The notes: a model not told the origin generated them from the letters alone. A stretch of 27,035 bases of DNA from a virus (IMGVR_UViG_3300042991_000632:1-27035); one strand, 5' to 3'. Counted from the first letter of the stretch, positions 3,107 to 24,801 are shown. Numbers and translations are program-made.

Positions 3107-3466
3107 ATGAAAAACATTATTAAAGGAATTTTAGAACAAGAACTATATATTAATGAAAATCACACCATTGCAGGTATTGACAATGCTGTGGAAAGACTTC
3201 GTATGTGGTTTAGTGGCGATGTGGGAATTGCTGCTTTAAATATGGTTCAATGTAAAACACAATCGGGAGAACCTTCTTCAATTTCATCTAACCCAATTGA
3301 GAATATTGAGGATAAAACTCTTCAAGCCAATAATATTTATGGTGTTAACATTGAAGAAAAGAAAACTGCTGACAACAATAATGTTGTGATTGATGAAACG
3401 ATTTGTCCAGACTGTAAAGGTCAGACATTTCTTATTAAACCAAGTGAACCAGAAAAAAACGAATAA
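3107..3466 (+). CDS. Hypothetical protein
   Basis: 119-aa ORF with a C-terminal CPDCKG motif. Confidence 0.65.
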   Translation: MKNIIKGILEQELYINENHTIAGIDNAVERLRMWFSGDVGIAALNMVQCKTQSGEPSSISSNPIENIEDKTLQANNIYGVNIEEKKTADNNNVVIDETICPDCKGQTFLIKPSEPEKNE

Positions 3467-4541: not shown

Positions 4542-5144
4542 ATGGAAAAGAGACAAAAAATTGATCTATCGCTTATTGAACAAGCGAAGAAAGGAAATCA
4601 GGCAGCATATAATAGTTTATTTAAACACTATCATGGTTTCATTCGATATGCAATATCTAATCTTGTATATAATACTGCAGACGCTGAAGATTTAACAATG
4701 ATAGCGTTCCAAAAAGCATTCAGTAAACTTGACAAATATACACCAATTTATGAATTCAATACTTGGTTATCAGTTATTGCAAAAAATACTGCAATTGATT
4801 TTCTTATTGCAAAAAAAAGAAACATATTAGATTATGTTGAGGAAATTACCGACACACATTATCCAACAAAAAATAAAGTTACCCCGGAAGATGAAATTAT
4901 TAATAAAGAAATTGGAATATATCTCGAAAAAGGAATTAATAGATTAAATGATAAACATAAAAAAGTAATACAACTTAGATATATTGATGGCTTGAGTTGT
5001 GATGAACTTGCTGAAAAACTGAATATTCGTGGGAATACAGCACGTGGTCAGTTACTTCGAGCAAGAATGAAATTATTAGAAATAATGAAAATACCTTTAC
5101 CCGAAAAAACTGATGGTCAAAAAATAAGTTATTTTAAATCATAA
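4542..5144 (+). CDS. RNA polymerase sigma-70 factor, ECF subfamily
   Basis: Region 2 (DAEDLTMIAFQKAF...FNTWLSVIAKNTAIDFL) and region 4 HTH (KVIQLRYIDGLSCDELAEKLNIRGNTARGQLLRAR). Confidence 0.92.
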   Translation: MEKRQKIDLSLIEQAKKGNQAAYNSLFKHYHGFIRYAISNLVYNTADAEDLTMIAFQKAFSKLDKYTPIYEFNTWLSVIAKNTAIDFLIAKKRNILDYVEEITDTHYPTKNKVTPEDEIINKEIGIYLEKGINRLNDKHKKVIQLRYIDGLSCDELAEKLNIRGNTARGQLLRARMKLLEIMKIPLPEKTDGQKISYFKS

Positions 5145-5158
5145 CGATTGATATTGAG

Positions 5159-5166
5159 TATTTATA
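5159..5166 (+). promoter_or_regulatory. TATTTATA motif (candidate late promoter)
   Basis: 18 nt upstream of ATG 5185. Confidence 0.5.
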
Positions 5167-5184: not shown

Positions 5185-8100
5185 ATGAGTGTTTTTCGAA
5201 TATTAGCCGAAGAAATAGAAAACTGGTACGCCAATCAACCTACGGTTTCATTAATCAATGAAGGTGATAAAAAATATTATTATCATGGTAGAAATACTGG
5301 CGCAAGACCATATTATGGTAAATATATATTCATAACTGATAGTTTTGGTTATGCATCTGGATATGGCGATGGTAAAATAGTGCATGTATATACATTACCA
5401 TTTGGTGATGATAGATTATTTTCAATCAAAAATCCCCATCATTTAAGTCATTTAAGAAAATATATTGATGATTATACTATAAGTGTAATATTTAAATCAA
5501 GCAATAATGATGAGGAAATAGATTGGGCAGCACTTTCATATATCGGTACTGACGAGTTTGAACAACCCGAAGATTTATTCGAACATATGGGTTATTATGG
5601 TATTAAATTAAAAGAACGTACTGGTATTAATTCAATTTATGTGTTTGATGAAAAATATTTAACTTATGAGGGTACTATCGATCTTACCACACCTGAAATG
5701 CAAAATAAGATCAGACAATTCTATCATAATTTCGAAAAAGATAAACATTTCATTGAAGAAGAAAATGAGGTCACTGGCAGCACTAAAACACCACAGGAAA
5801 TTGCAAATAGTTTAGTTACTGATCCACGTTTTAAAAAAGTAACTGTACTTGTAAATCTTGATGTGCAACTTGCTGATGAAGCATTTAAACGTGACACTGG
5901 TTTCTATATTGGCAAAGAAGATAAAGGTATTGGTATCCGTAAAGAAAAGGTCATGGAACTTATTAAAAGCGGTGAACTCAAATATGCACCAGAGGCAAGC
6001 ATTTATTTAACTAACGATGGTAAACCAAGATTATCTTTTGGTGACGGCAGACATAGATTTGCTGTACTCAGAGACTTGGGAGTTAAATCAATAAACATGT
6101 CAATCTGGAATGCGCCACAATCAAGGAAATTAATACCGTTACTACAAAGAAATGATCAAAATAATGAAAAGCAAAATCAGTGGGAATCATATACTGCTGA
6201 AGAAATTGCTAAACATATTTATAATTTATTAACCCCAGAACAACAAGAAGAAAATGACTGGAACTTCAATGATTATTATAATACTATCAAAGGATTTGGT
6301 GAAGCATATGAGTTAATCGACATAAATCCAAACGATTTAAAATTTAATGAGGATTTCTATTTTGATACCGTAGAAAACTATGAATATCTGATGAAACAAA
6401 ATTCGCCAATACCGGAAATTGTTATTGATGCGGATAATGGAATAATTGATGGTAATCATAGGGCAAAAGCAGCAATGAATCTTGGTAAAACAATTAAAGC
6501 ATATAGGGCAATTCAACAATATGCAAATGAAAGTAATGATATACCAAAAATTAACGAAACAACATATAAAGTTTATCACGGAACAAATGAAAAATTTGGT
6601 AATTTCAATTTTAATAAAGCAACACAAGGCATAATCTGGTTCACTGACAGTATTGATTCAATTCAAAAGGGTGAACATGGCGGTCAGGGAAATAAATATA
6701 TCATGACCAGATATATAACAATCAATAACCCTGCTGGTTGGAAAGAATATGAAAAATATGGATTGCAACAACTTCAGGATATGGGTTATGATGGTGTGAT
6801 ATTACCACAAGGCAATAAAACAGATTATTTTGTATTCTCAAATAAAAATATTTCAGCAAAACCATTAACTGAAGAAGAAGATTATCGTGGTCAGCATACT
6901 GCACCAACCTCTGAAGATTCACCTATGTATGACGTTACAAACGCATTTGGTGAAGATATTTATACGGACAAAGCATTAAGAATGTTTGGTTTGTACGGTT
7001 CTTATGATAGTTATAGCATTGCTTTGATCCAGAGAGCAAGAAATAAACCCAACATGCTCGTTAAAATATATCGTGCAATTCCAAAAGTTATAACTAATCA
7101 GGATAGATTTAATGACTACGAAAAACAAAAGTTATATATATTAAAGACTGGAAGATTACCAAAAGGTGCTGACAATTGGAGAAATAGCAGCGAATATTAT
7201 GATTGGCTTTCTAATGAAGTTGACAGACTAAGAGGATTGCCCCAAGAAACAGAAGAAAAGGTTAAGATTAATAACGGTGATTGGGTAACAATAAATCCTG
7301 CATATGCAAAAGTACATGGTCAAAGTAATCTTAATAATAAATTCAAAGTATTAAGTAAAACCGTTCCAGCAAAAAATTTGTTTACTGATGGCAATAGCAT
7401 ACACGAATGGGGTTATGTTGGAAATGATTTAAACGAAAGAAAGAAAAAAAGACAAATTGGTATGGCATTGCCACTTGGTCAAATATTTACTGGTGGTATG
7501 CTTGAGGAACAAACAGAACCAATAGAAAGAGGTACTTCTGGTGACTGTTATAAAAACGTTCAGGATTATCTTCTTGATAACGACATACCATATGCAACAA
7601 TAGTACACGGAGTTGTGACAAGCAGAAACGGAACTCTAAATCATGCTTGGATCGAAACAGATGAAGATGTATATGACCCGACAACCGGAGTTAAAACAGA
7701 TAAGGAAAAGTATTACGCAAAACTTAATCCACAGGTTCATGCAAGATATACATTCACAGATGCATTAAAACAAAGATTCATAACAGGTAATTATGGTCCG
7801 TGGACTGAATCAACAAACGAAGGCGTTGCAGACAAATACGCAGAAAAAGCATTTAATATTCCCGATACCGGGGAAGAAGATTATTATAAAGCAACTGCAG
7901 CACTTCCACCAGACCCATCAATGGGTGAATATGTCTGTGATGTTTATGATGATGAAGATCATCCATTGGTAGAAAAAAGAAAGTTGTTATCCAGAATATT
8001 TAAAAATCCAAAAAACCTAACAAAATTCGGTAAAAACGTAAGAGCAGTATCTGACATAAACGGTAATTTTTATATCGCAGAAACAGACGCACCGTTCTTT

Positions 8101-8763
8101 CATCAGGAACTTCAGGATGCTCTCTGGAATAAGGGTATTCATGATTCATTTATGCAATGGTACAGAATGGGATTATCAAACCTTTTCACATTAAGCGGAT
8201 CATATATGGGGTTATCATCCAATACTGAAGAAACATATCTCAAAAACGTTAAGACAAAAAATCCTCAATTCAGATTTCTGACACGCCAGAATACCGAAGT
8301 CGCTAATGAAGGCGTTGCCGATGATGCAAGAGAAAGAATGTTTAACATTCCAAACCCTGAAGCAGAAATGGATTATAAAGCAACAAGAAATATTGAACCA
8401 ACATCAGATATGGGTGAATATGTCGGTGATATTATTATTGGTGATGAGTTTCAATCCAGAGTATTCAAAAATCCTAAAAATCTCGATAAATTCGGAAATC
8501 GTCATGGCGGATCAGTTAAAGCAATCAGTCTTCCAAATGGTGATATATATATTGCAGAAAAAGATGCGTTCTTCTTTCATAACGATATATTAAGAAGTTT
8601 AAATTTACCACGCAGTCCGTATATCGCATGGTATGCAAGTAATTATAATGACGGATTCTCAATGGCTATGAGCAGTTTCGATAAAAAGTCAATGGATCGT
8701 ATAACTAAAATGCGAGATGTTGTTCAATATAGATTTCCTCAATATAAGTTTAATATTGATTAA
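5185..8763 (+). CDS. Large multidomain polyvalent-type protein (ART-like, ParB/Srx-like x2, ART-PolyVal-like, papain/transglutaminase-like, C-terminal tandem repeat)
   Basis: YYHG..YIFIT..YA.GYG; SFGDGRHRF; IIDGNHRAKAA; VYHGT..WFT..YDGVI..YFVF; DYRGQHTAP..IYRAIP..GDWVT..EWGY; GDCY..HAWIE..YDPT; two NEGVAD-initiated repeats. Confidence 0.75.
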   Translation: MSVFRILAEEIENWYANQPTVSLINEGDKKYYYHGRNTGARPYYGKYIFITDSFGYASGYGDGKIVHVYTLPFGDDRLFSIKNPHHLSHLRKYIDDYTISVIFKSSNNDEEIDWAALSYIGTDEFEQPEDLFEHMGYYGIKLKERTGINSIYVFDEKYLTYEGTIDLTTPEMQNKIRQFYHNFEKDKHFIEEENEVTGSTKTPQEIANSLVTDPRFKKVTVLVNLDVQLADEAFKRDTGFYIGKEDKGIGIRKEKVMELIKSGELKYAPEASIYLTNDGKPRLSFGDGRHRFAVLRDLGVKSINMSIWNAPQSRKLIPLLQRNDQNNEKQNQWESYTAEEIAKHIYNLLTPEQQEENDWNFNDYYNTIKGFGEAYELIDINPNDLKFNEDFYFDTVENYEYLMKQNSPIPEIVIDADNGIIDGNHRAKAAMNLGKTIKAYRAIQQYANESNDIPKINETTYKVYHGTNEKFGNFNFNKATQGIIWFTDSIDSIQKGEHGGQGNKYIMTRYITINNPAGWKEYEKYGLQQLQDMGYDGVILPQGNKTDYFVFSNKNISAKPLTEEEDYRGQHTAPTSEDSPMYDVTNAFGEDIYTDKALRMFGLYGSYDSYSIALIQRARNKPNMLVKIYRAIPKVITNQDRFNDYEKQKLYILKTGRLPKGADNWRNSSEYYDWLSNEVDRLRGLPQETEEKVKINNGDWVTINPAYAKVHGQSNLNNKFKVLSKTVPAKNLFTDGNSIHEWGYVGNDLNERKKKRQIGMALPLGQIFTGGMLEEQTEPIERGTSGDCYKNVQDYLLDNDIPYATIVHGVVTSRNGTLNHAWIETDEDVYDPTTGVKTDKEKYYAKLNPQVHARYTFTDALKQRFITGNYGPWTESTNEGVADKYAEKAFNIPDTGEEDYYKATAALPPDPSMGEYVCDVYDDEDHPLVEKRKLLSRIFKNPKNLTKFGKNVRAVSDINGNFYIAETDAPFFHQELQDALWNKGIHDSFMQWYRMGLSNLFTLSGSYMGLSSNTEETYLKNVKTKNPQFRFLTRQNTEVANEGVADDARERMFNIPNPEAEMDYKATRNIEPTSDMGEYVGDIIIGDEFQSRVFKNPKNLDKFGNRHGGSVKAISLPNGDIYIAEKDAFFFHNDILRSLNLPRSPYIAWYASNYNDGFSMAMSSFDKKSMDRITKMRDVVQYRFPQYKFNID
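7816..8760 (+). repeat. Two diverged tandem ~150-165-aa protein repeats
   Basis: Units start at 7816 and 8305 and share NEGVAD..FNIP..YKAT..MGEYV..FKNPKNL.KFG..NG..YIAE.DA.FFH. Confidence 0.85.
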
Positions 8764-8766
8764 GTT

Positions 8767-9690
8767 ATGAAAATCAGAAATATTATAAAAGAAGAAATAA
8801 GAAAATTCATTAAAGAAGAATTTACTGGCGGTAAACTTTATGGCTATCATTGCACACCATGTAAGAACTTAGAAAATATCGAACATAACGGATTTAAAAT
8901 CGGTGAACGTGCAATGCAGGGTGAAGGTGTTTATGCTTTCTATAACCTTACTGATGACAGTTCAGGTAACGCAGCAGTAGGATACGGTCAAAGACATATA
9001 AGCGAAAACGAATTCTGCATTGTTAAGTTTGAAATCGAACATCCAGAGTGGTTGTTAATACTAATTAAAGATATTGCTGAAGATGTTCTTGGAGAAAAGG
9101 CAGATATTATAACACAAATAACAAGACTATTCAAAGGTTGGGATGAAAGCAAACCAAATGGCTGGGATAATTATATAGAAGACTTATTCAAAAGTGTTGC
9201 TTCTGAATATCGAACACCAGAATTTGCCGAACAACATAAACAATGGCTGATAAAACAATTTAATGGCGATATACAAGCAGGTTCAAGTAATTTAATGTTT
9301 GGTACAAGTGATTTAGAAAGCAAAGCAAGATTCGGTGTTATATATTATGGTGAATATGGAATACAATATCTGATTAAACGTGCAAATATTATGAAGCCAA
9401 TAGGATATCATAATGTTAAAAGAGTTAACTGGAAGTTGGAAGTGTCTGATTTTATTCCGTTTACTGGTAAAAGTAAAACAATTAAAGATAAAATACTTTC
9501 TGACGAGAAATATAAAGACCTTGCTACATATATTGATAAGATCAATAGCATGGAAGATTTACAAAAACTTAAATTTGAGTTTAAGGAAAAAAGAAATGCT
9601 GCCAGAAATAACAAGGACTATGAATATTATGACAATATGTATGAACAAATTGATGAGTTAACTTATACACAAGGCGGTAAACTTACTTAA
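8767..9690 (+). CDS. Putative ADP-ribosyltransferase/PARP-like fold protein with an IKEE-type leader
   Basis: MKIRNIIKEEIRKFIKEE leader, then YGYHCT...L..I...GF......QGEGVYAF, resembling the H-x-T / G-x-G-x-Y ART signature. Confidence 0.55.
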   Translation: MKIRNIIKEEIRKFIKEEFTGGKLYGYHCTPCKNLENIEHNGFKIGERAMQGEGVYAFYNLTDDSSGNAAVGYGQRHISENEFCIVKFEIEHPEWLLILIKDIAEDVLGEKADIITQITRLFKGWDESKPNGWDNYIEDLFKSVASEYRTPEFAEQHKQWLIKQFNGDIQAGSSNLMFGTSDLESKARFGVIYYGEYGIQYLIKRANIMKPIGYHNVKRVNWKLEVSDFIPFTGKSKTIKDKILSDEKYKDLATYIDKINSMEDLQKLKFEFKEKRNAARNNKDYEYYDNMYEQIDELTYTQGGKLT

Positions 9691-11499: not shown

Positions 11500-11525
11500 T
11501 GCAATATTTTTAAATAAAAAACGTA
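11500..11525 (+). promoter_or_regulatory. ECF-type promoter TGCAAT-N16-CGTA
   Basis: Exact match, upstream of 11554. Confidence 0.8.
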
Positions 11526-11553
11526 TATTAGTAGAAACCAAAACACAAACGAC

Positions 11554-11967
11554 ATGAAGGTATCAGATTACAGCGAATTGAAAAGTACATTAGGTCGCAC
11601 TCCCACAATGGACGAAGTGCGTGAGATGGAAGACAACAAACTCATGGAGATCAAGAAGTACGCCAACTTTTGTGGGTACACTGATGTCGATCCTTACGAG
11701 GTAGTAAGAACAATCTCTCCGATTTGCGTTGAAGTTCGTGCAATGTCCACTAAGCAGATTGAATTCCCGAAGCAGTTTTATCCGGGCGGTTTCGTTGGTC
11801 ATTTTGCTGACAATCGTGGCGGTCAGAAGTACGAATACACATCAAATCCCGATGCTCCGGTGTTTCGCATCCGGTGGAGCAGAAGTAACAGACATTGGCA
11901 GACCGCAAGTAAGATGAGGTTTGCAATGTCCGACAACCCCTACAAATTCTACGACTACAACTTTTAA
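11554..11967 (+). CDS. Hypothetical phage early protein
   Basis: 137-aa ORF between promoter and terminator. Confidence 0.8.
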   Translation: MKVSDYSELKSTLGRTPTMDEVREMEDNKLMEIKKYANFCGYTDVDPYEVVRTISPICVEVRAMSTKQIEFPKQFYPGGFVGHFADNRGGQKYEYTSNPDAPVFRIRWSRSNRHWQTASKMRFAMSDNPYKFYDYNF

Positions 11968-11971
11968 AAGA

Positions 11972-11997
11972 GAGAGGGTGAAATTCCCTCTCCCTTT
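11972..11997 (+). terminator. Intrinsic terminator
   Basis: GAGAGGG-tgaaatt-CCCTCTC followed by CCTTTT. Confidence 0.6.
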
Positions 11998-12023
11998 TGC
12001 AATATTTTTAAATAAAAAACGTA
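11998..12023 (+). promoter_or_regulatory. ECF-type promoter TGCAAT-N16-CGTA
   Basis: Exact match, upstream of 12052. Confidence 0.8.
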
Positions 12024-12051
12024 CTATATATATAACCAAAACACAAACGAC

Positions 12052-12315
12052 ATGGCAACAACAACAAGACCGCTTTACATGATTGCTCACGAAATCGAAG
12101 CAAATTGGAAGAGATCAATATCCGGCACTGATCTGTATTTCGGTGCAAAACCTTACCTCAGTGCAATGTCCACTTTGAATAGCATCAATGATAACTACGG
12201 CATGGACTCCGGCAGATCAATAGTGGCATACTTTCTTTCCAATGCAACAACGTGGCGTGGAGAAACTGCTAAGAGGGTTAAGAAGGAACTAAATGATATG
12301 CTGAAGGCACGATAG
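12052..12315 (+). CDS. Hypothetical phage early protein
   Basis: 87 aa, YFGAKPYLSAM..YGMDS..YFLSNATTWRGE; own promoter. Confidence 0.8.
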   Translation: MATTTRPLYMIAHEIEANWKRSISGTDLYFGAKPYLSAMSTLNSINDNYGMDSGRSIVAYFLSNATTWRGETAKRVKKELNDMLKAR

Positions 12316-12430
12316 GTGCTGATGGGAATAGTGACTATGCCGGAAGTATAGTAGACCACACGAGGGCAACTCAAACCGGATATTAAAAGTTAGCACTATA
12401 CCCCTGATGCCAAAATATAATGTCCGGCAA

Positions 12431-12456
12431 TGCAATATTCTTAAATAAAAAACGTA
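12431..12456 (+). promoter_or_regulatory. ECF-type promoter TGCAAT-N16-CGTA
   Basis: Exact match, upstream of 12484. Confidence 0.8.
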
Positions 12457-12483
12457 CTATATCTGTAACCAAACACACACAAC

Positions 12484-12651
12484 ATGACACCAAAAGAAAG
12501 ACGCAAAGAACAGAAGAGGCAGTACGAATATATCAAAGACATTCGTACAAGGATTCAGAAAGGTCTTACGACCACGTTTGCAGAACGCAATCAGATGCAC
12601 ATCTACGACAAGAAGATGGCTCAGAAACGTAAATCAATGTCCAACGCATAA
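12484..12651 (+). CDS. Small basic protein (55 aa)
   Basis: MTPKERRKEQKRQYEYIKDIRTRIQKG...; directly after promoter and ACACAC leader; below the track cutoff. Confidence 0.65.
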   Translation: MTPKERRKEQKRQYEYIKDIRTRIQKGLTTTFAERNQMHIYDKKMAQKRKSMSNA

Positions 12652-12663
12652 TACCAATGTACG

Positions 12664-12957
12664 ATGAAAACAATACAAGACTACGTTGACGAGATTAAGA
12701 AAGCAAGTGATGCCGATTGGCAGAAGCATGGCTACGACATGACCAAAGCACCGACCTATACCATAATGTCCGGGAGTAAGTTTCATAAGATTGTTGTTTC
12801 AACTTGGGGATCACAATCTGTGCATTGTTTTGTTGACCGGGAAAGCGGTGACATATACAAAGCAGCGACATGGAAAGCACCCGCAAAACACGTCCGGGGA
12901 AACATCAATGAGGATAGGAAACCTCTGTTGGGATGGGACTTTTATTGGCGGAGATAA
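12664..12957 (+). CDS. Hypothetical phage early protein
   Basis: 97 aa, SVHCFVDRESGDIYKAATWKAPAKHVRGNI. Confidence 0.8.
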   Translation: MKTIQDYVDEIKKASDADWQKHGYDMTKAPTYTIMSGSKFHKIVVSTWGSQSVHCFVDRESGDIYKAATWKAPAKHVRGNINEDRKPLLGWDFYWRR

Positions 12958-12982
12958 TGTACTAACTTAAAACTAATGTACG

Positions 12983-13141
12983 ATGGAACGCAAAGATTGG
13001 ATTGTTCGTTATTACGACAAGAAAGATAAATTAATCAGTTCGTATATCATTAAAGATAGGACTGAGCATGAAGCCGAGAATGAGGCAATGGGAGATATGA
13101 CTTATGAATGTGATGATTGGACGATGGTAGTAAAAAAATAA
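12983..13141 (+). CDS. Hypothetical protein (52 aa)
   Basis: MERKDWIVRYYDKKDKLISSYIIKDRTEHEAENEA...; fills gap. Confidence 0.65.
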   Translation: MERKDWIVRYYDKKDKLISSYIIKDRTEHEAENEAMGDMTYECDDWTMVVKK

Positions 13142-13149
13142 TGTCCGGG

Positions 13150-13175
13150 TGCAATATTTTTAAATAAAAAACGTA
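13150..13175 (+). promoter_or_regulatory. ECF-type promoter TGCAAT-N16-CGTA
   Basis: Exact match, upstream of 13202. Confidence 0.8.
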
Positions 13176-13201
13176 TATATATTGAATCAAAACTTACGAC
13201 T

Positions 13202-13546
13202 ATGACACTCGAAAGAATTATTGAACTGCAAAAAGATTACGGAGTAACCGGAACGCAGAAAGGAATTAACACCGGGGAGATATGGAAGTTTGAAGGAAGC
13301 GTTGGAAGGTTTGCAATGGATATGGTTGAAGGCGGAATTTGTCTTCTCCCGGAAGAACGCACTCAGGACTATTACGGAAACACAATTCCTTCCCGGAACG
13401 ATTTGAAACCCGGCACACATGGAACATTGCTTAATGCTGAAAACTTTTGGCAGAAGGTTGAAGACGGTGACTTTGAGGCAATAGAATATCTTGAAGGTAC
13501 ATTCGCCCCGGAGAATAATGTAATTGATTTCCCGGAAGAAGAATAA
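13202..13546 (+). CDS. Hypothetical phage protein
   Basis: 114-aa ORF between promoter and terminator. Confidence 0.8.
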   Translation: MTLERIIELQKDYGVTGTQKGINTGEIWKFEGSVGRFAMDMVEGGICLLPEERTQDYYGNTIPSRNDLKPGTHGTLLNAENFWQKVEDGDFEAIEYLEGTFAPENNVIDFPEEE

Positions 13547-13579
13547 GATTTTCCATTTTTTTTGTTTGATATATTTAAG

Positions 13580-13615
13580 ACCCTGCACCGTTTAATCAGA
13601 ACGGCAGGGTTTTTT
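13580..13615 (+). terminator. Intrinsic terminator
   Basis: ACCCTGC...GCAGGGT followed by TTTTT. Confidence 0.6.
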
Positions 13616-13638
13616 ATTTAAAAATTGTTGTATCTTTG

Positions 13639-13664
13639 TGCAATATTTTTAATTAAAAAACGTA
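13639..13664 (+). promoter_or_regulatory. ECF-type promoter TGCAAT-N16-CGTA
   Basis: Exact match, upstream of 13693; TATCTTTG abuts at 13631-13638. Confidence 0.8.
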
Positions 13665-13692
13665 TTATACATATAAACTAAAACACATAGAT

Positions 13693-14634
13693 ATGGAAAC
13701 AACAGTCGCATTACCTGAAACCCGGAGAGAACGCAGAGTTCGTCAGAGGGTTGAAAAGAAGATCAAAGTAGGTGCAATTGAATGTACACTTGCTGATCTC
13801 ATATTCCCGGTTGAACTCATTGCCAACCCGGATAAGACCAACAAAGAATATTCACGTGTTGTTGTTGGCATGGTTGATGGCGAAAAGATGTCATTGAACT
13901 ATTGCTCAAACATTTATCAACTCGTCCCCAATGAAGCAATCTTCCCGGAGATTGAGAACGTTCTTGATAGGAACAACATTCAGTATGAAGTAACTTATTC
14001 TCATATTGATAACGTCAAATTCTTTGTTGAATACAAGATTACTGATCCCCGGTTTGCTTATAGAATGAAGGGAACAAACGATAATATCGTTCCACTCATC
14101 CGGGTTCAGCACTCTTACAATGGTCTTATTAAGTATCGTATTATCTTCGGTTATTTCAGATTTATTTGTGAAAATGGTCTTGTTATAGCAGTTGAAGAAC
14201 TGAAGAAATACAATCTCGTGGTGACCGGGAAACATACCAAGATCATTCTGAACTCATTTAAATTGCTCAACAAGATGCTGAAAAACTTTACCAAGAATGC
14301 TGATACGATGATAGCAGACATTACATCAAAGTATGAAATTCTTGGTGGTCGTTGGATTAAGAACCCGGAAGATCGTATAACTGAGGTTCTGAAAGCAAAC
14401 AAGATCGCTATTCACGACAATAGTAAAGCAAGTACATTGAATTTCATTATGACAAAACTCCGTACTGAGGCTGATCATACCGAACTCGGATACAATGGTC
14501 ATGTGAACGATTGGCTGATCTACAACGCAATCAATCAGTATCTCTACAAGAACGGAAACATAATGACACCAACCATCAGAATGGAGAAGGATAGCAAGAT
14601 ATTTGAGTATATGCTGAAATACCAACCCGCATAA
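13693..14634 (+). CDS. DUF932-like domain protein
   Basis: CSNIYQLVPNEAIF and IRVQHSYNG..Y....GYFRFICENGLV match the DUF932 pattern (NSyDG...G.fR..C.NGl). Confidence 0.65.
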   Translation: METTVALPETRRERRVRQRVEKKIKVGAIECTLADLIFPVELIANPDKTNKEYSRVVVGMVDGEKMSLNYCSNIYQLVPNEAIFPEIENVLDRNNIQYEVTYSHIDNVKFFVEYKITDPRFAYRMKGTNDNIVPLIRVQHSYNGLIKYRIIFGYFRFICENGLVIAVEELKKYNLVVTGKHTKIILNSFKLLNKMLKNFTKNADTMIADITSKYEILGGRWIKNPEDRITEVLKANKIAIHDNSKASTLNFIMTKLRTEADHTELGYNGHVNDWLIYNAINQYLYKNGNIMTPTIRMEKDSKIFEYMLKYQPA

Positions 14635-14650
14635 CCCGGCAACCCGGATG

Positions 14651-14679
14651 AAGGAGAGAAGAAATTCTCTCCTTTTTTT
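14651..14679 (+). terminator. Intrinsic terminator
   Basis: AAGGAGAGAA-GAAA-TTCTCTCCTT plus T run (10-bp stem, GAAA loop). Confidence 0.8.
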
Positions 14680-14680
14680 A

Positions 14681-14706
14681 TGCAATATTTCCCGGCATCT
14701 TACGTA
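14681..14706 (+). promoter_or_regulatory. ECF-type promoter TGCAAT-N16-CGTA
   Basis: Exact match, upstream of 14734. Confidence 0.8.
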
Positions 14707-14733
14707 TATTATAATGAACCAAAACATAATGCT

Positions 14734-15003
14734 ATGTATGAAACAATGATTTTAACGCTTGACGTTAATTCTTTTAGTGATGGTCGCAAAGTCGCTGAAA
14801 GGATTGAAAACGAAAAGTTTGAATCCCACACAGACCTTGTTAAACGGCTCATGCTCGAACTTGGTACTGAGGGTGCAAACTATGATGACTACAATATCCA
14901 AGTATGGTCACTTACTGACTTCATGGATGCGTGCAACAACCAAGAGATTAACTTGGAGAACGTTTGGATTGGCTATGTTCAACTAAGAAAACTATTCTCA
15001 TGA
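14734..15003 (+). CDS. Hypothetical protein
   Basis: Start moved to ATG 14734 (MYETMILTL) because the track start lies inside the promoter. Confidence 0.7.
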   Translation: MYETMILTLDVNSFSDGRKVAERIENEKFESHTDLVKRLMLELGTEGANYDDYNIQVWSLTDFMDACNNQEINLENVWIGYVQLRKLFS

Positions 15004-15230
15004 ATAAGGCATACTTTGTTAAGGAGATTATGGTCACAGACCCAGACTCCAAAGGAGAAGTTGAACTCTCCGTTTACAAGCACGAGAATGGTGGTATGTT
15101 TGCTGTTGATAGTTCATTCCTTGACCAAGTTGTAAGGACTGATGAGTACGACAGACCTATTCTTCCTGATCCATTTAGTGATTGTGGTGTGGAAGTAGGT
15201 GTTATTGAACACGTTGTGTTATTTGACTGA
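15000..15230 (+). CDS. Hypothetical protein
   Basis: ATGA overlap with the previous stop (MNKAYFVKEI...). Confidence 0.7.
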   Translation: MNKAYFVKEIMVTDPDSKGEVELSVYKHENGGMFAVDSSFLDQVVRTDEYDRPILPDPFSDCGVEVGVIEHVVLFD

Positions 15231-15250
15231 CAGAAATAATGTCCCGGATT

Positions 15251-15276
15251 TGCAATATTTCCGGGACATTTACGTA
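15251..15276 (+). promoter_or_regulatory. ECF-type promoter with -35 in a hairpin loop
   Basis: TGCAAT-N16-CGTA inside AATGTCCCGGA/TCCGGGACATT (15238-15270). Confidence 0.8.
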
Positions 15277-15308
15277 TATTTAATGTACACTAACTAATTA
15301 TTACGATC

Positions 15309-15647
15309 ATGGAACTGACACTTATAAAAACACAGACATATAAACTTGAACCTTACGGGCATTTCGTATTCAAGTGGAACAGACCCAAGGGTATTTTAAA
15401 ACCTCACCAGATACTTGTATCGGAACTTCGAATGTACCACGATAGTGCAATGCCACTTACCGAGGATCAAGAAAATGCTTTCGTTAAGGAGATGAAGAAA
15501 TACAAAACAGACGTATTCACAGACGGAGAAAAGTTTTACACCCGTACCAATAGCGGGATGACAGAAGTATATCATGTCAGATCATACAACTATAAGATCG
15601 ATAAAATGTATAGATCATTAGTTGATGCAACTGAAAGGTTTTCATAA
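15309..15647 (+). CDS. Hypothetical protein
   Basis: 112-aa ORF after promoter. Confidence 0.75.
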   Translation: MELTLIKTQTYKLEPYGHFVFKWNRPKGILKPHQILVSELRMYHDSAMPLTEDQENAFVKEMKKYKTDVFTDGEKFYTRTNSGMTEVYHVRSYNYKIDKMYRSLVDATERFS

Positions 15648-15687
15648 AGATAAATGTTGTTTTGGTTCATAGTGGTTTTGGTTTAAC

Positions 15688-15717
15688 AACCCGCATCGAT
15701 GAAGGTGCGGGTTTTTT
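15688..15717 (+). terminator. Intrinsic terminator
   Basis: AACCCGCA...TGCGGGTT plus T run. Confidence 0.7.
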
Positions 15718-15719
15718 CT

Positions 15720-15750
15720 TTGTTTATTAAAGTATTTATCACTATCTTTG
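15720..15750 (+). promoter_or_regulatory. Bacteroidota housekeeping-type promoter TTG-N20-TATCTTTG
   Basis: Upstream of 15770, a gene that follows a terminator but lacks the ECF motif. Confidence 0.5.
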
Positions 15751-15769
15751 CAAACTTAAACACATAACG

Positions 15770-16081
15770 ATGAAATACACGAACTATATTATTAATGGAG
15801 ATGCAATAAATGCGAAAGCCTTGGAGAATGTACCCAAAATCCTTTTACCATTTACGCTTTCCGTTGCTATTTTCGGTGTGATTCTTCTTGCTGGGGCAAT
15901 ACCAATGACATTAAGCATAGACGGAGTGAGATCATTGAAATGTCAGATGATTAGGTTTGAACGCAGATATCATTATGGTCAAACCATTGTCCAAAACAAG
16001 GCATTCAGATTTGCTGTTGTTAAACCAATCAACATTGTTGTTGTTACTCCAATTCATAATATACTAAGATTTGTTGCATAG
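15770..16081 (+). CDS. Hypothetical membrane-anchored protein
   Basis: 103 aa with one hydrophobic segment (LLPFTLSVAIFGVILLAGAIPM). Confidence 0.65.
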   Translation: MKYTNYIINGDAINAKALENVPKILLPFTLSVAIFGVILLAGAIPMTLSIDGVRSLKCQMIRFERRYHYGQTIVQNKAFRFAVVKPINIVVVTPIHNILRFVA

Positions 16082-16083
16082 AC

Positions 16084-16109
16084 TGCAATATTTCCATATG
16101 TTTTGCGTA
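16084..16109 (+). promoter_or_regulatory. ECF-type promoter TGCAAT-N16-CGTA
   Basis: Exact match, upstream of 16138. Confidence 0.8.
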
Positions 16110-16137
16110 TTATGTATATACCAATATACACATAACT

Positions 16138-16368
16138 ATGGCAAAACCGAAATTCTTTCAAACAGCATTACTCAGACTTGATGACGACCAAGTGAAAGAT
16201 ATACTCAAAGGTTCTTCAATGTCCGAGAGAATGGGTTCAGATAGCGCAGAATGTCCAGAGTGTGGACTTAACGTCTGGTGGTTGCTTCCGCTTGAAAGTG
16301 TTGCAAGACGTGAAGGTGGCAAACCATATTGTGAATGTTTGAATTGTGGTTATACCACACATATGTAG
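16138..16368 (+). CDS. Small zinc-ribbon protein
   Basis: CPECG...CECLNCG. Confidence 0.7.
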   Translation: MAKPKFFQTALLRLDDDQVKDILKGSSMSERMGSDSAECPECGLNVWWLLPLESVARREGGKPYCECLNCGYTTHM

Positions 16369-16414
16369 GATTTCTTTTTCTCTACATAATTTTAATTGGT
16401 TACATGACCCCAGA

Positions 16415-16440
16415 TGCAATATTCTGGGGTTTTTTCCGTA
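16415..16440 (+). promoter_or_regulatory. ECF-type promoter with -35 in a terminator loop
   Basis: ACCCCAGA-TGCAATAT-TCTGGGGT-TTTTT-C-CGTA. Confidence 0.8.
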
Positions 16441-16463
16441 TTATATATGTAATCAAAAACTAA

Positions 16464-16811
16464 ATGCAAATGAAACAAGAATTAAAAGAATTGCAAAACT
16501 TAGCCAACAGATGTCTGAATGACGTTGCAAATGTCATTAGGATACTAACGGCAGACAATCCACTTATCCTTTTTGATAAGGATACTATTGAAAGCGATAA
16601 TGATACGCTTTACGACTTGCCATTTGGTTATTATGTTGGCAAGTATGAATACTATAACGAGGGAACTATTTGGAAAGTTCACGGCAACGATGTAACGATC
16701 ATGTTGCGTGGTGAACAATTTGGCGACACATGGGAACTTAGCGTTTCTGATCTGCCTTTTGAAAGTCAGGTTGACTTACTCACATACTTAGCAGAAAGGA
16801 TTGAAGAATGA
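16464..16811 (+). CDS. Hypothetical protein
   Basis: 115-aa acidic ORF after promoter. Confidence 0.75.
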   Translation: MQMKQELKELQNLANRCLNDVANVIRILTADNPLILFDKDTIESDNDTLYDLPFGYYVGKYEYYNEGTIWKVHGNDVTIMLRGEQFGDTWELSVSDLPFESQVDLLTYLAERIEE

Positions 16812-17065
16812 GAATAATTAACTTAGTGACAATCAAAGCAGGTGTTGTTGACAACATCGAATCCTATGCTGTATGGGAAGAACAACTCGTACAAGATGTT
16901 GTTGATGTAGCCGAGAAACGCTTTCTCGAAATAGCCAAAGAACTTGGTTGGGACGAGAATGAAGAAGATGCTATCACCGAAGAAGAACTTTTGGATGGTG
17001 GCTATTTTGAATGTGAAACGGGGACATGGGATAGCATTTGTATCTCGTGGTCAGACGTAGTGTAA
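16808..17065 (+). CDS. Hypothetical protein
   Basis: 85 aa, ATGA overlap. Confidence 0.75.
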   Translation: MRIINLVTIKAGVVDNIESYAVWEEQLVQDVVDVAEKRFLEIAKELGWDENEEDAITEEELLDGGYFECETGTWDSICISWSDVV

Positions 17066-17084
17066 CGCTTTTTATTTAAAAACA

Positions 17085-23937: not shown

Positions 23938-24444
23938 ATGGGATACACACATTACTGGATAGGAAAAAGGAGCACGGATGAGAACTGGAACAAGTTCCGG
24001 GAAGCATGCGAGAAGTTATACCAGAATCTTCCTGAAAAGACAGATACTGCAGGTGGATTCTATAAAGACAGCAAACTGAACATAGGATCAGGAAGTGGAA
24101 AAGGCAAGCCAGTGTTTGATGGAGTAATGGTTGACTTCAACGGAAGAGGAAATGAACTTAGTAATGAAGGATTCAGGATTGTGAAACATGCCGGAGATTG
24201 GGATTTCTGCAAGACAGCCAGAAAACCGTATGATCTTCTGGTGGTTGCTGTCCTGATCGCTGCATGGCAGATTCTGGATTACAGGTTTGATTCTGACGGT
24301 TTCACTGATTACAAAGGTGAGAAGCATATCAATGACCTGATACCCGGCATGAACTTCTACAATGAAGTTATGAGACCAGATGTGCTCATAACAGAAGACA
24401 TGCTCTGGGAGCAGTGTAAAGAAAAGAATGAATTGGTTTCATAA
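23938..24444 (+). CDS. Hypothetical phage protein
   Basis: 168 aa; MGYTHYW...FNG...FCKTARKPYD. Confidence 0.8.
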   Translation: MGYTHYWIGKRSTDENWNKFREACEKLYQNLPEKTDTAGGFYKDSKLNIGSGSGKGKPVFDGVMVDFNGRGNELSNEGFRIVKHAGDWDFCKTARKPYDLLVVAVLIAAWQILDYRFDSDGFTDYKGEKHINDLIPGMNFYNEVMRPDVLITEDMLWEQCKEKNELVS

Positions 24445-24503
24445 AGATATTTCTGCCTCGATTCGAGAGGCAATTGTGTGTGGTTAATACGTTGGTTAGT
24501 ATG

Positions 24504-24539
24504 CCCTACAGAAGTTGTGACCCTGTAGGGTTTTTTTTT
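24504..24539 (+). terminator. Intrinsic terminator
   Basis: CCCTACAG...CTGTAGGG plus T9. Confidence 0.8.
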
Positions 24540-24546
24540 ACCCGGC

Positions 24547-24572
24547 TGCAATATTTCAGGAAGTTTTACGTA
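24547..24572 (+). promoter_or_regulatory. ECF-type promoter TGCAAT-N16-CGTA
   Basis: Exact match; followed by a non-coding element. Confidence 0.8.
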
Positions 24573-24584
24573 CTATATATGTAA

Positions 24585-24684
24585 CAGATTTTATTTAAGA
24601 ATTGTGTAATAGGAACATCACCTGAGACCGGGTAGACTCCAACTTACTTTATAGTCTGAATTTAGAATCATTCTAAACAACAGC
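24585..24684 (+). ncRNA. Putative structured small RNA/leader, copy 2
   Basis: Paralog of 18581-18681, at the same position relative to its promoter. Confidence 0.5.
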
Positions 24685-24775
24685 CAGAAATGAACAGTTT
24701 TTATTTAAAAACATACTGTATTTAAAGTTGATGATGTTTTTATTTAAAAAATAAATGAAATATATTTTGCAATAT

Positions 24776-24801
24776 TGCAATATTTGTGTACTTTTGACGT
24801 A
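24776..24801 (+). promoter_or_regulatory. ECF-type promoter TGCAAT-N16-CGTA
   Basis: Exact match; -35 overlaps the palindrome TTGCAATATTGCAA (24767-24780); upstream of the rIIA-like gene. Confidence 0.8.

Follow-up and report, generated by a model that had tools for sequence, protein, structure and literature searches.

A modular polyprotein from a T4-related giant phage, predicted to be targeted to the head and cut into injected effectors

Among the closest described counterparts of the gene reported here is the head cargo of bacteriophage T4. The T4 capsid targeting sequence (CTS) reads MKTYQEFIAE (PMC8442874); its residues 4 and 7 serve targeting and its residues 8 and 10 processing, the prohead protease gp21 cuts after L/I-X-E, and the cargo protein Alt has propeptides removed at both ends (PMC9026906). 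In the giant phages phiKZ, 201phi2-1 and SPN3US, inner-body and ejection proteins are cut by gp175/gp245, distant homologues of gp21 (PMC9026906). A third group, the polyvalent proteins, was defined by Iyer, Burroughs, Anand, de Souza and Aravind in 2017; that paper predicts their injection and suggests that peptidases of zincin, assemblin-like or LonC type, embedded in the chain, process them (PMC5512222). In the present study we examined an open reading frame (ORF) of 1192 amino acids (aa), P0001, at positions 5185 to 8763 of IMGVR_UViG_3300042991_000632:1-27035. This 27,035-nucleotide stretch, hereafter the window, covers the opening 27 kb of an IMG/VR viral contig that is 148 kb long and has a CheckV completeness of 45%. 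We predict from sequence, with a probability of roughly 0.6, that the encoded polyprotein is targeted to the phage head and cut by a prohead protease into injected effectors. On this reading it would belong to the polyvalent proteins and be fitted to capsid targeting and maturation cleavage of the T4 type.

As a family, P0001 and its relatives resemble Alt, IPI, IPII and IPIII of T4 in having an N-terminal leader of about ten residues that is hydrophobic at positions 4 and 7 and carries I/L-x-E at positions 8-10. The predicted cargo is likewise variable and defence-related or host-modifying, including an ADP-ribosyltransferase (ART), its genes lie outside the head cluster, and genes of the gp21, gp22 and gp23 types follow one another in the clade as they do in T4. 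In contrast, each T4 cargo is a single protein that is cut one or two times close to its ends, whereas P0001 strings together eight modules with internal sites; no sequence similarity between it and Alt or the internal proteins could be detected, its host is no enterobacterium and it is known from sequence alone. With the polyvalent proteins, as portrayed in the 2017 paper, it has in common that a single chain combines many unrelated effector domains, among them an ART-PolyVal hub domain and ParB/Srx-like domains, that the architecture is extremely mosaic and that delivery together with the DNA is predicted (PMC5512222). Unlike those proteins, P0001 matches only ART-PolyVal (PF18760) by Pfam, with no MuF, zincin or assemblin-like domain and no MPTase, and text searches of that paper found no CTS-like leader, I/L-x-E joints or papain-like module (PMC5512222). 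The phiKZ group is similar in that giant phages cut many head proteins after Glu at a three-residue motif, some of them multiply, and then eject them (PMC9026906), but the motif there is S/A/G-x-E, which is not enriched here, the proteins are unrelated and the head module of the present clade is T4-like. DdrB/Dar of phage P1 is a head-packaged, proteolytically processed anti-restriction protein with a ParB/Srx-type domain (PMC5512222). It differs in several respects: module 3 of P0001 matches ddrB-ParB only below threshold (E 0.14), P1 does not belong to the T4-like phages, and DdrB presumably processes itself through its zincin domain. A 2021 survey of jumbo phages mentions gp21 orthologues and injected polyvalent proteins separately, and full-text literature searches returned no paper joining the prohead protease or capsid targeting with polyvalent polyproteins. 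The CTS and gp21 principle and the polyvalent class are both known; their combination, with cut motifs at shuffling joints, appears to be undescribed.

Relatives of P0001 were collected with a word-indexed search, which gave 40 proteins of 655-2086 aa, and an exhaustive phmmer search, which gave 3838 cluster representatives at E <=1e-3, including 2047 at E <=1e-10. Module limits were set without reference to motifs, as the points where BLAST homology to differently built homologues ends while the subject continues, and these breakpoints cluster at aa 27, 193, 322, 456, 560, 744-785, 879 and 1039. Among the 40 full-length and about 140 further relatives, homology comes in blocks that vary in order, copy number and combination. 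For example, P0002-P0007 (949 aa) keep the N-terminus of P0001 and lack exactly aa 194-455, and P0008 has the module (M) order M4-M5-spacer-M7-M1-M2. The features of the polyprotein are the following.

5185..8763, plus strand: polyprotein ORF (P0001), open, 1192 aa
5185..5262, plus strand: leader, aa 1-26; CTS-like start with F4, L7-A8-E9 and EEIE, then conserved NQPTVSL-INE ending at Glu26
5263..5760, plus strand: module 1, aa 27-192; YYHGR and FITD, ends IEE 190-192; probable ART-PolyVal/AcrIF11-like ADP-ribosyltransferase
5761..6150, plus strand: module 2, aa 193-322; GDGRHR; ParB/Srx-like candidate
6151..6558, plus strand: module 3, aa 323-458; IIDGNHR, ends INE 456-458; ParB/Srx-like candidate
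6559..6873, plus strand: module 4, aa 459-563; YHGT, WFTDS and YDGV, ends LTE 561-563; ART-PolyVal by profile
6874..7437, plus strand: module 5, aa 564-751; DYRGxHxAP, GDWVTI and EWGY, ends LNE 749-751
7438..7509, plus strand: spacer peptide of 24 aa, aa 752-775; basic RKKKR start, then LPLGQIF..G..E; between LNE and LEE
7510..7821, plus strand: module 6, aa 776-879; predicted papain/transglutaminase-like, putative triad C788, H820 and D831, ends TNE 877-879
7822..8310, plus strand: module 7, aa 880-1042; repeat unit 1, GVADKY start, KNPK..L..F and H conserved, ends ANE 1040-1042
8311..8763, plus strand: module 8, aa 1043-1192 plus stop codon; repeat unit 2, 40% identity to module 7

Both the polyprotein ORF and its division into eight modules are confirmed. 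The modules, encoded together on a phage contig, represent five or more distinct kinds, and the architectures of the relatives are mosaic and rearranging. An earlier note on this DNA, made from the sequence alone, had described about eight modules in 1192 aa, and the homology-based limits bear this out. All of the motifs that it quoted occur in the order given, and its two repeats correspond to modules 7 and 8, at 40% identity.

The joints between modules carry a recurrent tripeptide. P0001 contains 14 I/L-x-E sites, six of them at module limits with Glu at 26, 192, 458, 563, 751 and 775 (INE 24-26, IEE 190-192, INE 456-458, LTE 561-563, LNE 749-751 and LEE 773-775), and these would be the exposed L/I-x-E cut positions of a gp21 substrate. 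The motif was assessed across the family using 141 architecture-distinct relatives. Densities of [IL]xE per 100 aa were 0.69 in module cores, 3.5 in linkers (n=42) and 5.4 in N-terminal leaders (n=40), a 5-fold and an 8-fold excess over the cores, with at least one site in 29/42 linkers and 34/40 leaders. The proteome-wide density is 1.4 per 100 aa, so that module cores have half of the average, a depletion that selection against internal sites would produce. Identical sequences were then dropped, leaving 39 linkers and 39 leaders, and residues were shuffled 2000 times within each. The linkers hold 34 [IL]xE sites against 12.7 expected (z 6.6, 0/2000 shuffles) and the leaders 49 against 22.8 (z 6.4, 0/2000 shuffles), these z-scores being upper bounds that overstate significance because homologous linkers are not independent. 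This enrichment over residue shuffles indicates that the arrangement of the motif is specific and not a mere effect of composition, and the x-x-E enrichment at linkers on which the earlier note had staked its proposal is thus present for I/L-x-E. By the same test, [IL]E, Ex[IL], [STAG]xE and [KR]xE were not enriched in linkers or leaders. The variant [IL]xD was flat in linkers and raised in leaders (18 vs 8.1, z 3.9); in T4, an Asp at P1 prevents processing. For [IL]xxE the rise was mild in the linkers (z 2.5) but strong in the leaders (z 9.4), as the IIKEEI leader would lead one to expect. Sites of the phiKZ type, S/A/G-x-E, were rejected as they are not enriched in the family.

Individual joints are consistent with this pattern. 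Linkers from M4 to M5 differ in length and sequence and keep only a hydrophobic-x-Glu (LTE, LNE, VKE, LQE, LSE or VNE), and those ahead of M4 in 43 relatives nearly always have L/I-[NS]-E. The spacer element RKKKR..LP.GQIF..G..E recurs in 11 relatives between differing modules, always ending in x-x-E, and may have a propeptide-like role. M6 and M7 were modelled jointly with a predicted local distance difference test score (pLDDT) of 83.8, M6 lying at about 80-90 and the modelled part of M7 mostly above 90; the M6/M7 joint at aa 878-882 is the sole internal stretch of this model with pLDDT <50.

The leader of the family has the register of the T4 CTS. In relatives with the first module near the N-terminus it comprises 10-12 residues with the consensus MKSIKQIIKEEI. 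Among 170 distinct N-termini of homologues, 32 combine hydrophobic residues at positions 4 and 7 with I/L/V/M at 8 and Glu at 10, and 23 further ones fit the T4 register when shifted by one. N-termini in the T4 register number only 4/240 and 3/526 ORFs (~1%) in the two phage genomes. A cultured phage provides a link to T4 itself: Vibrio phage VH7D, a T4-like member of the Straboviridae, encodes a stand-alone M5 homologue that starts MKTYTEFLSE, identical to the T4 CTS at 7/10 positions and with L-S-E at 8-10. In Vibrio phage 1.081.O, ...FSEFINLAE stands ahead of the M5 domain. Single modules with a leader of their own also occur within the family, namely M6 in P0184 and P0185 and M2 in P0187. 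The leader of P0001 includes a second site, INE 24-26, and its NQPTVSL..E element (aa 17-26, window 5233-5262) recurs in 10 relatives, both N-terminally and internally. As a separate observation, the VH7D homologue (gp301, L062:1474-1911) is located between regA-like and DNA polymerase genes and is annotated only as 'ParB C-terminal domain'.

A T4-type head module was identified in a complete relative, G001, of 364.7 kb with terminal repeats, whose DNA polymerase is 62% identical to that of the contig studied here (G000). Homologues of 93/240 ORFs of our contig are present in G001, largely collinear, and the contig corresponds to G001 165-356 kb. The remaining part, G001 1-165 kb, holds protease, scaffold and capsid genes in T4 order. 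The protease is of the gp21 type (Peptidase_S77, PF03420, 60.6 bits, above the cut-off), the scaffold is an acidic protein of 559 aa with 3.6 [IL]xE per 100 aa, ranking 3rd of 250 ORFs (T4 gp22 has 5.9), and the capsid protein belongs to the gp23 family (PF07068, 214 bits). The capsid protein has a propeptide that shows homology to the one of T4 gp23 (…W.K..LLEG … FENQ …) and ends INE where T4 has LTE65, a known cut (PMC9026906).

At the syntenic position in G001 (165512-168574, plus strand; L050:5512-8574) lies a different leader-tagged polyprotein of 1020 aa, with HExxH near aa 157, a leader-like stretch at about aa 636-652 and a C-terminal ART-PolyVal after LNE, followed by a leader-tagged small gene. 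The cargo at this position differs, which indicates that the locus is conserved and its cargo is not. By analogy it looks like a hypervariable cargo locus, resembling the internal-protein (CTS-cargo) loci of T-even phages, whose genes share the CTS alone (PMC3012670).

None of the results is at odds with the core prediction, and several lines of evidence support it, among them the register of the family leader, the motif enrichment in linkers and leaders, the head genes of G001 and the VH7D module 5 behind a near-canonical CTS. Under the mechanism that we propose, the amphipathic, CTS-like leader would dock the precursor on the scaffolding core during prohead assembly. A gp21-type prohead serine protease would then cut after Glu in exposed I/L-x-E sites, removing the leader and the 24-aa spacer and separating the modules into M1 (~19 kDa), M2+M3 (possibly joined), M4, M5, M6, M7 and M8. 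The small proteins so released would remain inside the head alongside the DNA and be ejected into the next host, where, at time zero, the ART, ParB/Srx-like, papain-like and two further domains without known counterparts could modify host or defence targets. With a single tag, eight cargos would in this way enter the head in equimolar amounts. From these comparisons we infer the targeting, cleavage, retention and ejection as well as all of the enzymatic targets.

The surroundings of the gene on the contig bear on its timing. It lies directly after a sigma-factor gene, with a short promoter-like word between them, and is followed immediately by a leader-bearing gene.

4542..5144, plus strand: gene for an extracytoplasmic function (ECF)-type sigma factor, directly 5' of the polyprotein gene
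5158..5165, plus strand: promoter-like word GTATTTAT, 27 nt 5' of the polyprotein ATG
8767..9690, plus strand: downstream gene, 307 aa, begins 3 nt past the polyprotein stop; family leader MKIRNIIKEEI

The 307-aa product matched no Pfam or PHROG family, and its positional counterpart in G001 likewise bears a leader. A rIIA gene lies at the end of the window. In our contig, 26/38 copies of GTATTTAT are found <=80 nt 5' of ORFs, and the word precedes a tail-fibre gene, tail-region genes, a second polyprotein and leader-tagged small genes. In G001 it peaks 21-27 nt 5' of ~50 ORFs, mostly in structural regions, with few in 160-300 kb. The word fits a late or structural class, and the polyprotein gene may accordingly be late.

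Several further features of these genomes are recorded here. Two conserved small genes with IKEIVKDEI / IIKEEI-type leaders (G000 94557-94763 and 95476-96135, minus strand; G001 303322-303528 and 304973-305587, minus strand) both have GTATTTAT upstream and are further candidate head cargos. With 4.9 and 5.2 [IL]xE per 100 aa, orthologous proteins of 226/229 aa (G000 132048-132728, minus strand, L004:8048-8728; G001 343883-344572, minus strand) rank highest in density among the ORFs >=150 aa of their respective genomes; the gene adjoins the second polyprotein with GTATTTAT upstream, matches no PHROG family and may be scaffold-like. Directly upstream of the G001 prohead protease gene is a GIY-YIG-like ORF (L038:2130-2807, minus strand); seg homing endonuclease genes of T4 likewise sit around genes 23 and 24.

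The prediction of a head-targeted, cleaved precursor also has to be weighed against a body of less favourable observations, in addition to the non-independence of linkers noted above. The leader of P0001 itself (F4, L7-A8-E9) is off the T4 register by one residue. Eight more I/L-x-E sites fall within its modules, and the M2/M3 joint (322/323) has no I/L-x-E site; relative P0010 carries IME there. TNE 877-879 and ANE 1040-1042 sit at breakpoints but are non-canonical and, with [STAG]xE not enriched, unsupported as a class of site. Of the eight tripeptides at which the earlier note had placed boundaries, the six I/L-x-E motifs at homology limits hold up, and TNE and ANE do so less well. For P0001 alone, an [IL]xE Glu lies <=6 aa from 5/10 breakpoint clusters, a coincidence matched by 93/20000 random placements and 19/5000 shuffles, so that the agreement between motif and breakpoint in the single protein is only moderately significant. 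A search of the 148-kb contig with PF03420 found no gp21-type protease, and no protease or head genes are present on this 45% complete contig; its alignment to G001 165-356 kb suggests that the head region lies outside the sampled part. The polyprotein gene lies within an early-looking block adjoining the sigma-factor and rII genes. Finally, a gp46-like gene and the DNA polymerase gene of G001 likewise have GTATTTAT ahead of them, and for this reason its interpretation as a clean late promoter was not upheld.

Some of these points would be explained if P0001 were an ordinary polyvalent protein that remains one intact chain, packaged or not, and whose I/L-x-E joints are uncut relics of fused leaders. 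The whole leader, even its Met, is retained at some joints of relatives P0023 and P0047, which attests to a history of fusion, and the TNE, ANE and M2/M3 joints misfit the motif. There is also a precedent in the virion RNA polymerase of phage N4, which is polyvalent and packaged uncut according to Iyer et al. (PMC5512222). Against relics, at many joints the tripeptide is all that is retained, in otherwise unrelated linkers of varying length, the motif is depleted within modules to half the proteome average, and in 11 proteins the 24-aa spacer has a motif at either end. These bare-motif joints, the depletion inside modules and the flanked spacer suggest selection on the motif itself, and we regard an uncut chain as the main rival reading, but an unlikely one.

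The position of the gene raises another alternative, in which P0001 would act as a multi-enzyme in the cytoplasm, early or midway through infection, and would not enter the head at all; its leader would then be an amphipathic helix with some other role, such as oligomerisation or membrane or partner binding. Its placement among sigma-factor, small accessory and rII genes, on a contig with no head genes of its own, would suit such a protein. The leader, however, has the register of the T4 CTS, which is rare elsewhere in the proteomes, and in the cultured T4-like phage VH7D M5 follows directly on a CTS that is near-canonical for T4. The upstream GTATTTAT is common to tail genes, and on the T4 map the alt and ip genes likewise lie outside the head gene cluster. 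A purely cytoplasmic role consequently seems rather improbable to us, and we favour the head-targeted precursor.

The identities of the modules vary in certainty. M4, scored alone (aa 456-563), matches PF18760 with 43.7 bits against a cut-off of 31.2 (E 6.2e-11, profile positions 8-66 of 140) and is, on this profile evidence, an ART-PolyVal domain, one of the hub domains of the polyvalent network. M1 is a probable ADP-ribosyltransferase. Both modules have YHG and F/W-x-T-D elements, their hhalign comparison gave E 1e-3 with a probability of only 22%, and PF18760 was matched by 1/21 M1 members (E 0.038) and not by the M1 of P0001. The atlas feature matches of M1, which occurs in other positions in 20 relatives, reached 0.93 to ART-PolyVal clusters and 0.91 to AcrIF11_ADP_ribosyl clusters. 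That its nearest feature-space clusters carry both of these labels suggests an anti-defence ART of the AcrIF11 type, as a language-model lead (0.91-0.93) without a match at the level of hidden Markov models. Profile searches of the PDB with M1 and M4 returned nothing relevant. Of the two ART-like modules proposed earlier, M4 is accordingly supported at the Pfam level and M1 remains probable only.

M2 and M3 are only weakly ParB/Srx-like by sequence. The GDGRHR motif of M2 is invariant in 14 homologues, and its weak profile matches were SbnI (E 1.4) and PFIN (E 0.049). M3 matched weakly to PF18763 ddrB-ParB (E 0.14) and to PDB 5k5d, a 'ParB domain protein nuclease' (E 0.2) and its best PDB match, across the DGxxR region. 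A comparison of M2 with M3 by hhalign gave a probability of 2%, and a sensitive search with M2+M3 returned four proteins, none annotated as ParB. The two ParB-like modules of the earlier note therefore stand as far as the DGxHR motifs go, with all profile matches being sub-threshold.

M5 is a widespread phage domain, and most of the best 150 of the 3838 representative matches are to this module. It belongs to PHROG 2579 (aa 563-752, E 1.6e-35), for which the label 'ParB C-terminal domain' is a name only. Its model is confident (pLDDT 89.6), and neither Foldseek nor VIA found a match that would make it an ART or another known fold: the best Foldseek E values were 0.44 against the PDB and 0.09 against AFDB clusters, and the VIA-wide comparison gave helical-hairpin matches only (Z <=6.3). 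No Pfam family was found among 58 members, and the PDB profile search gave a chance match only. Atlas leads to PARP, ART-PolyVal and Arr scored <0.8 and were not used. When the polyprotein gene was compared by megablast with 50,697 phage records, nothing matched; tblastn of the polyprotein against phage records matched M5 alone, in 17 records, and a search for related loci with a single protein piece found none.

M6 is modelled as a papain/transglutaminase-like cysteine hydrolase and predicted to be a protease or amidase. Its VIA matches include NTAQ1 (3c9q, Z 7.0, 99 aligned residues, root-mean-square deviation (rmsd) 2.8), LapG (5.9) and SseI (5.6), as well as C39 peptidases, protein glutaminases and NlpC/P60, and papain-like proteins make up nearly all of the 50 listed VIA matches over residues 5-106, at modest Z values. 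C788, H820 and D831 stand in G-D-C, H-A-W-I-E and Y-D-P-T contexts; a weak Transglut_core3 match (E 0.032) and small AFDB homologues (E 3e-7) were also found. The C-H-D papain-like module read from the sequence earlier is in this way matched by the fold of the model.

Such a domain could in principle cut its own precursor, and Iyer et al. propose the release of domains by embedded peptidases (PMC5512222). M6 does have a papain/transglutaminase-like fold with a Cys-His-Asp arrangement. Among the ~180 relatives collected, however, it is embedded only in P0001 and P0013 and cannot explain cut motifs that are family-wide. The stand-alone M6 proteins P0184 and P0185 carry their own leader, as other cargos do, and several of the best structural neighbours of M6 (NTAQ1, SseI and protein glutaminase) are amidases or deamidases. 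Self-cleavage through M6 is thus very improbable.

The M7/M8 repeat was aligned in 41 copies, with one to three per relative, and has no Pfam family, PDB profile match, atlas match or convincing structural neighbour. An Ntox43 match (E 7e-3) was disregarded (rmsd 20).

Two other observations were made in the window. A 119-aa ORF at 3107-3466 (plus strand) begins MKNIIKGILEQEL, a leader-like N-terminus, and matches no Pfam family. The bipartite word TGCAAT-N15-17-CGTA has 18 plus-strand copies in window 11500-24801 against 0.2 expected; these start just past a second sigma-factor gene, and none is 5' of the polyprotein gene.

At somewhat less than even odds, we tentatively extend the proposal to the T4-related giant phages of this clade as 'one tag, many cargos'. 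In this scheme CTS-tagged cargo genes would fuse and split freely, keeping a protease site at every joint, so that one leader loads equimolar injected effectors; the spacers (RKKKR..GQIF..E and NQPTVSL..E) would be discarded core-binding or protease-recruiting handles, and M5, with thousands of relatives, and the GVADKY repeat may be new effector folds.

If the head-targeted precursor is confirmed, it would connect two so far separate literatures, the computational one on injected polyvalent proteins and the experimental one on how T4 targets proteins to its capsid and cleaves them with gp21. Protein delivery based on the T4 CTS could then draw on natural examples of multi-cargo design. It would nominate M5, the GVADKY repeat and a minimal papain-like domain as host-takeover or anti-defence effectors of the first minute of infection. 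The strong mosaicism of such polyproteins would be explained, and the leader together with I/L-x-E joints would provide a testable rule for the injected proteome of uncultured T4-related giant phages.

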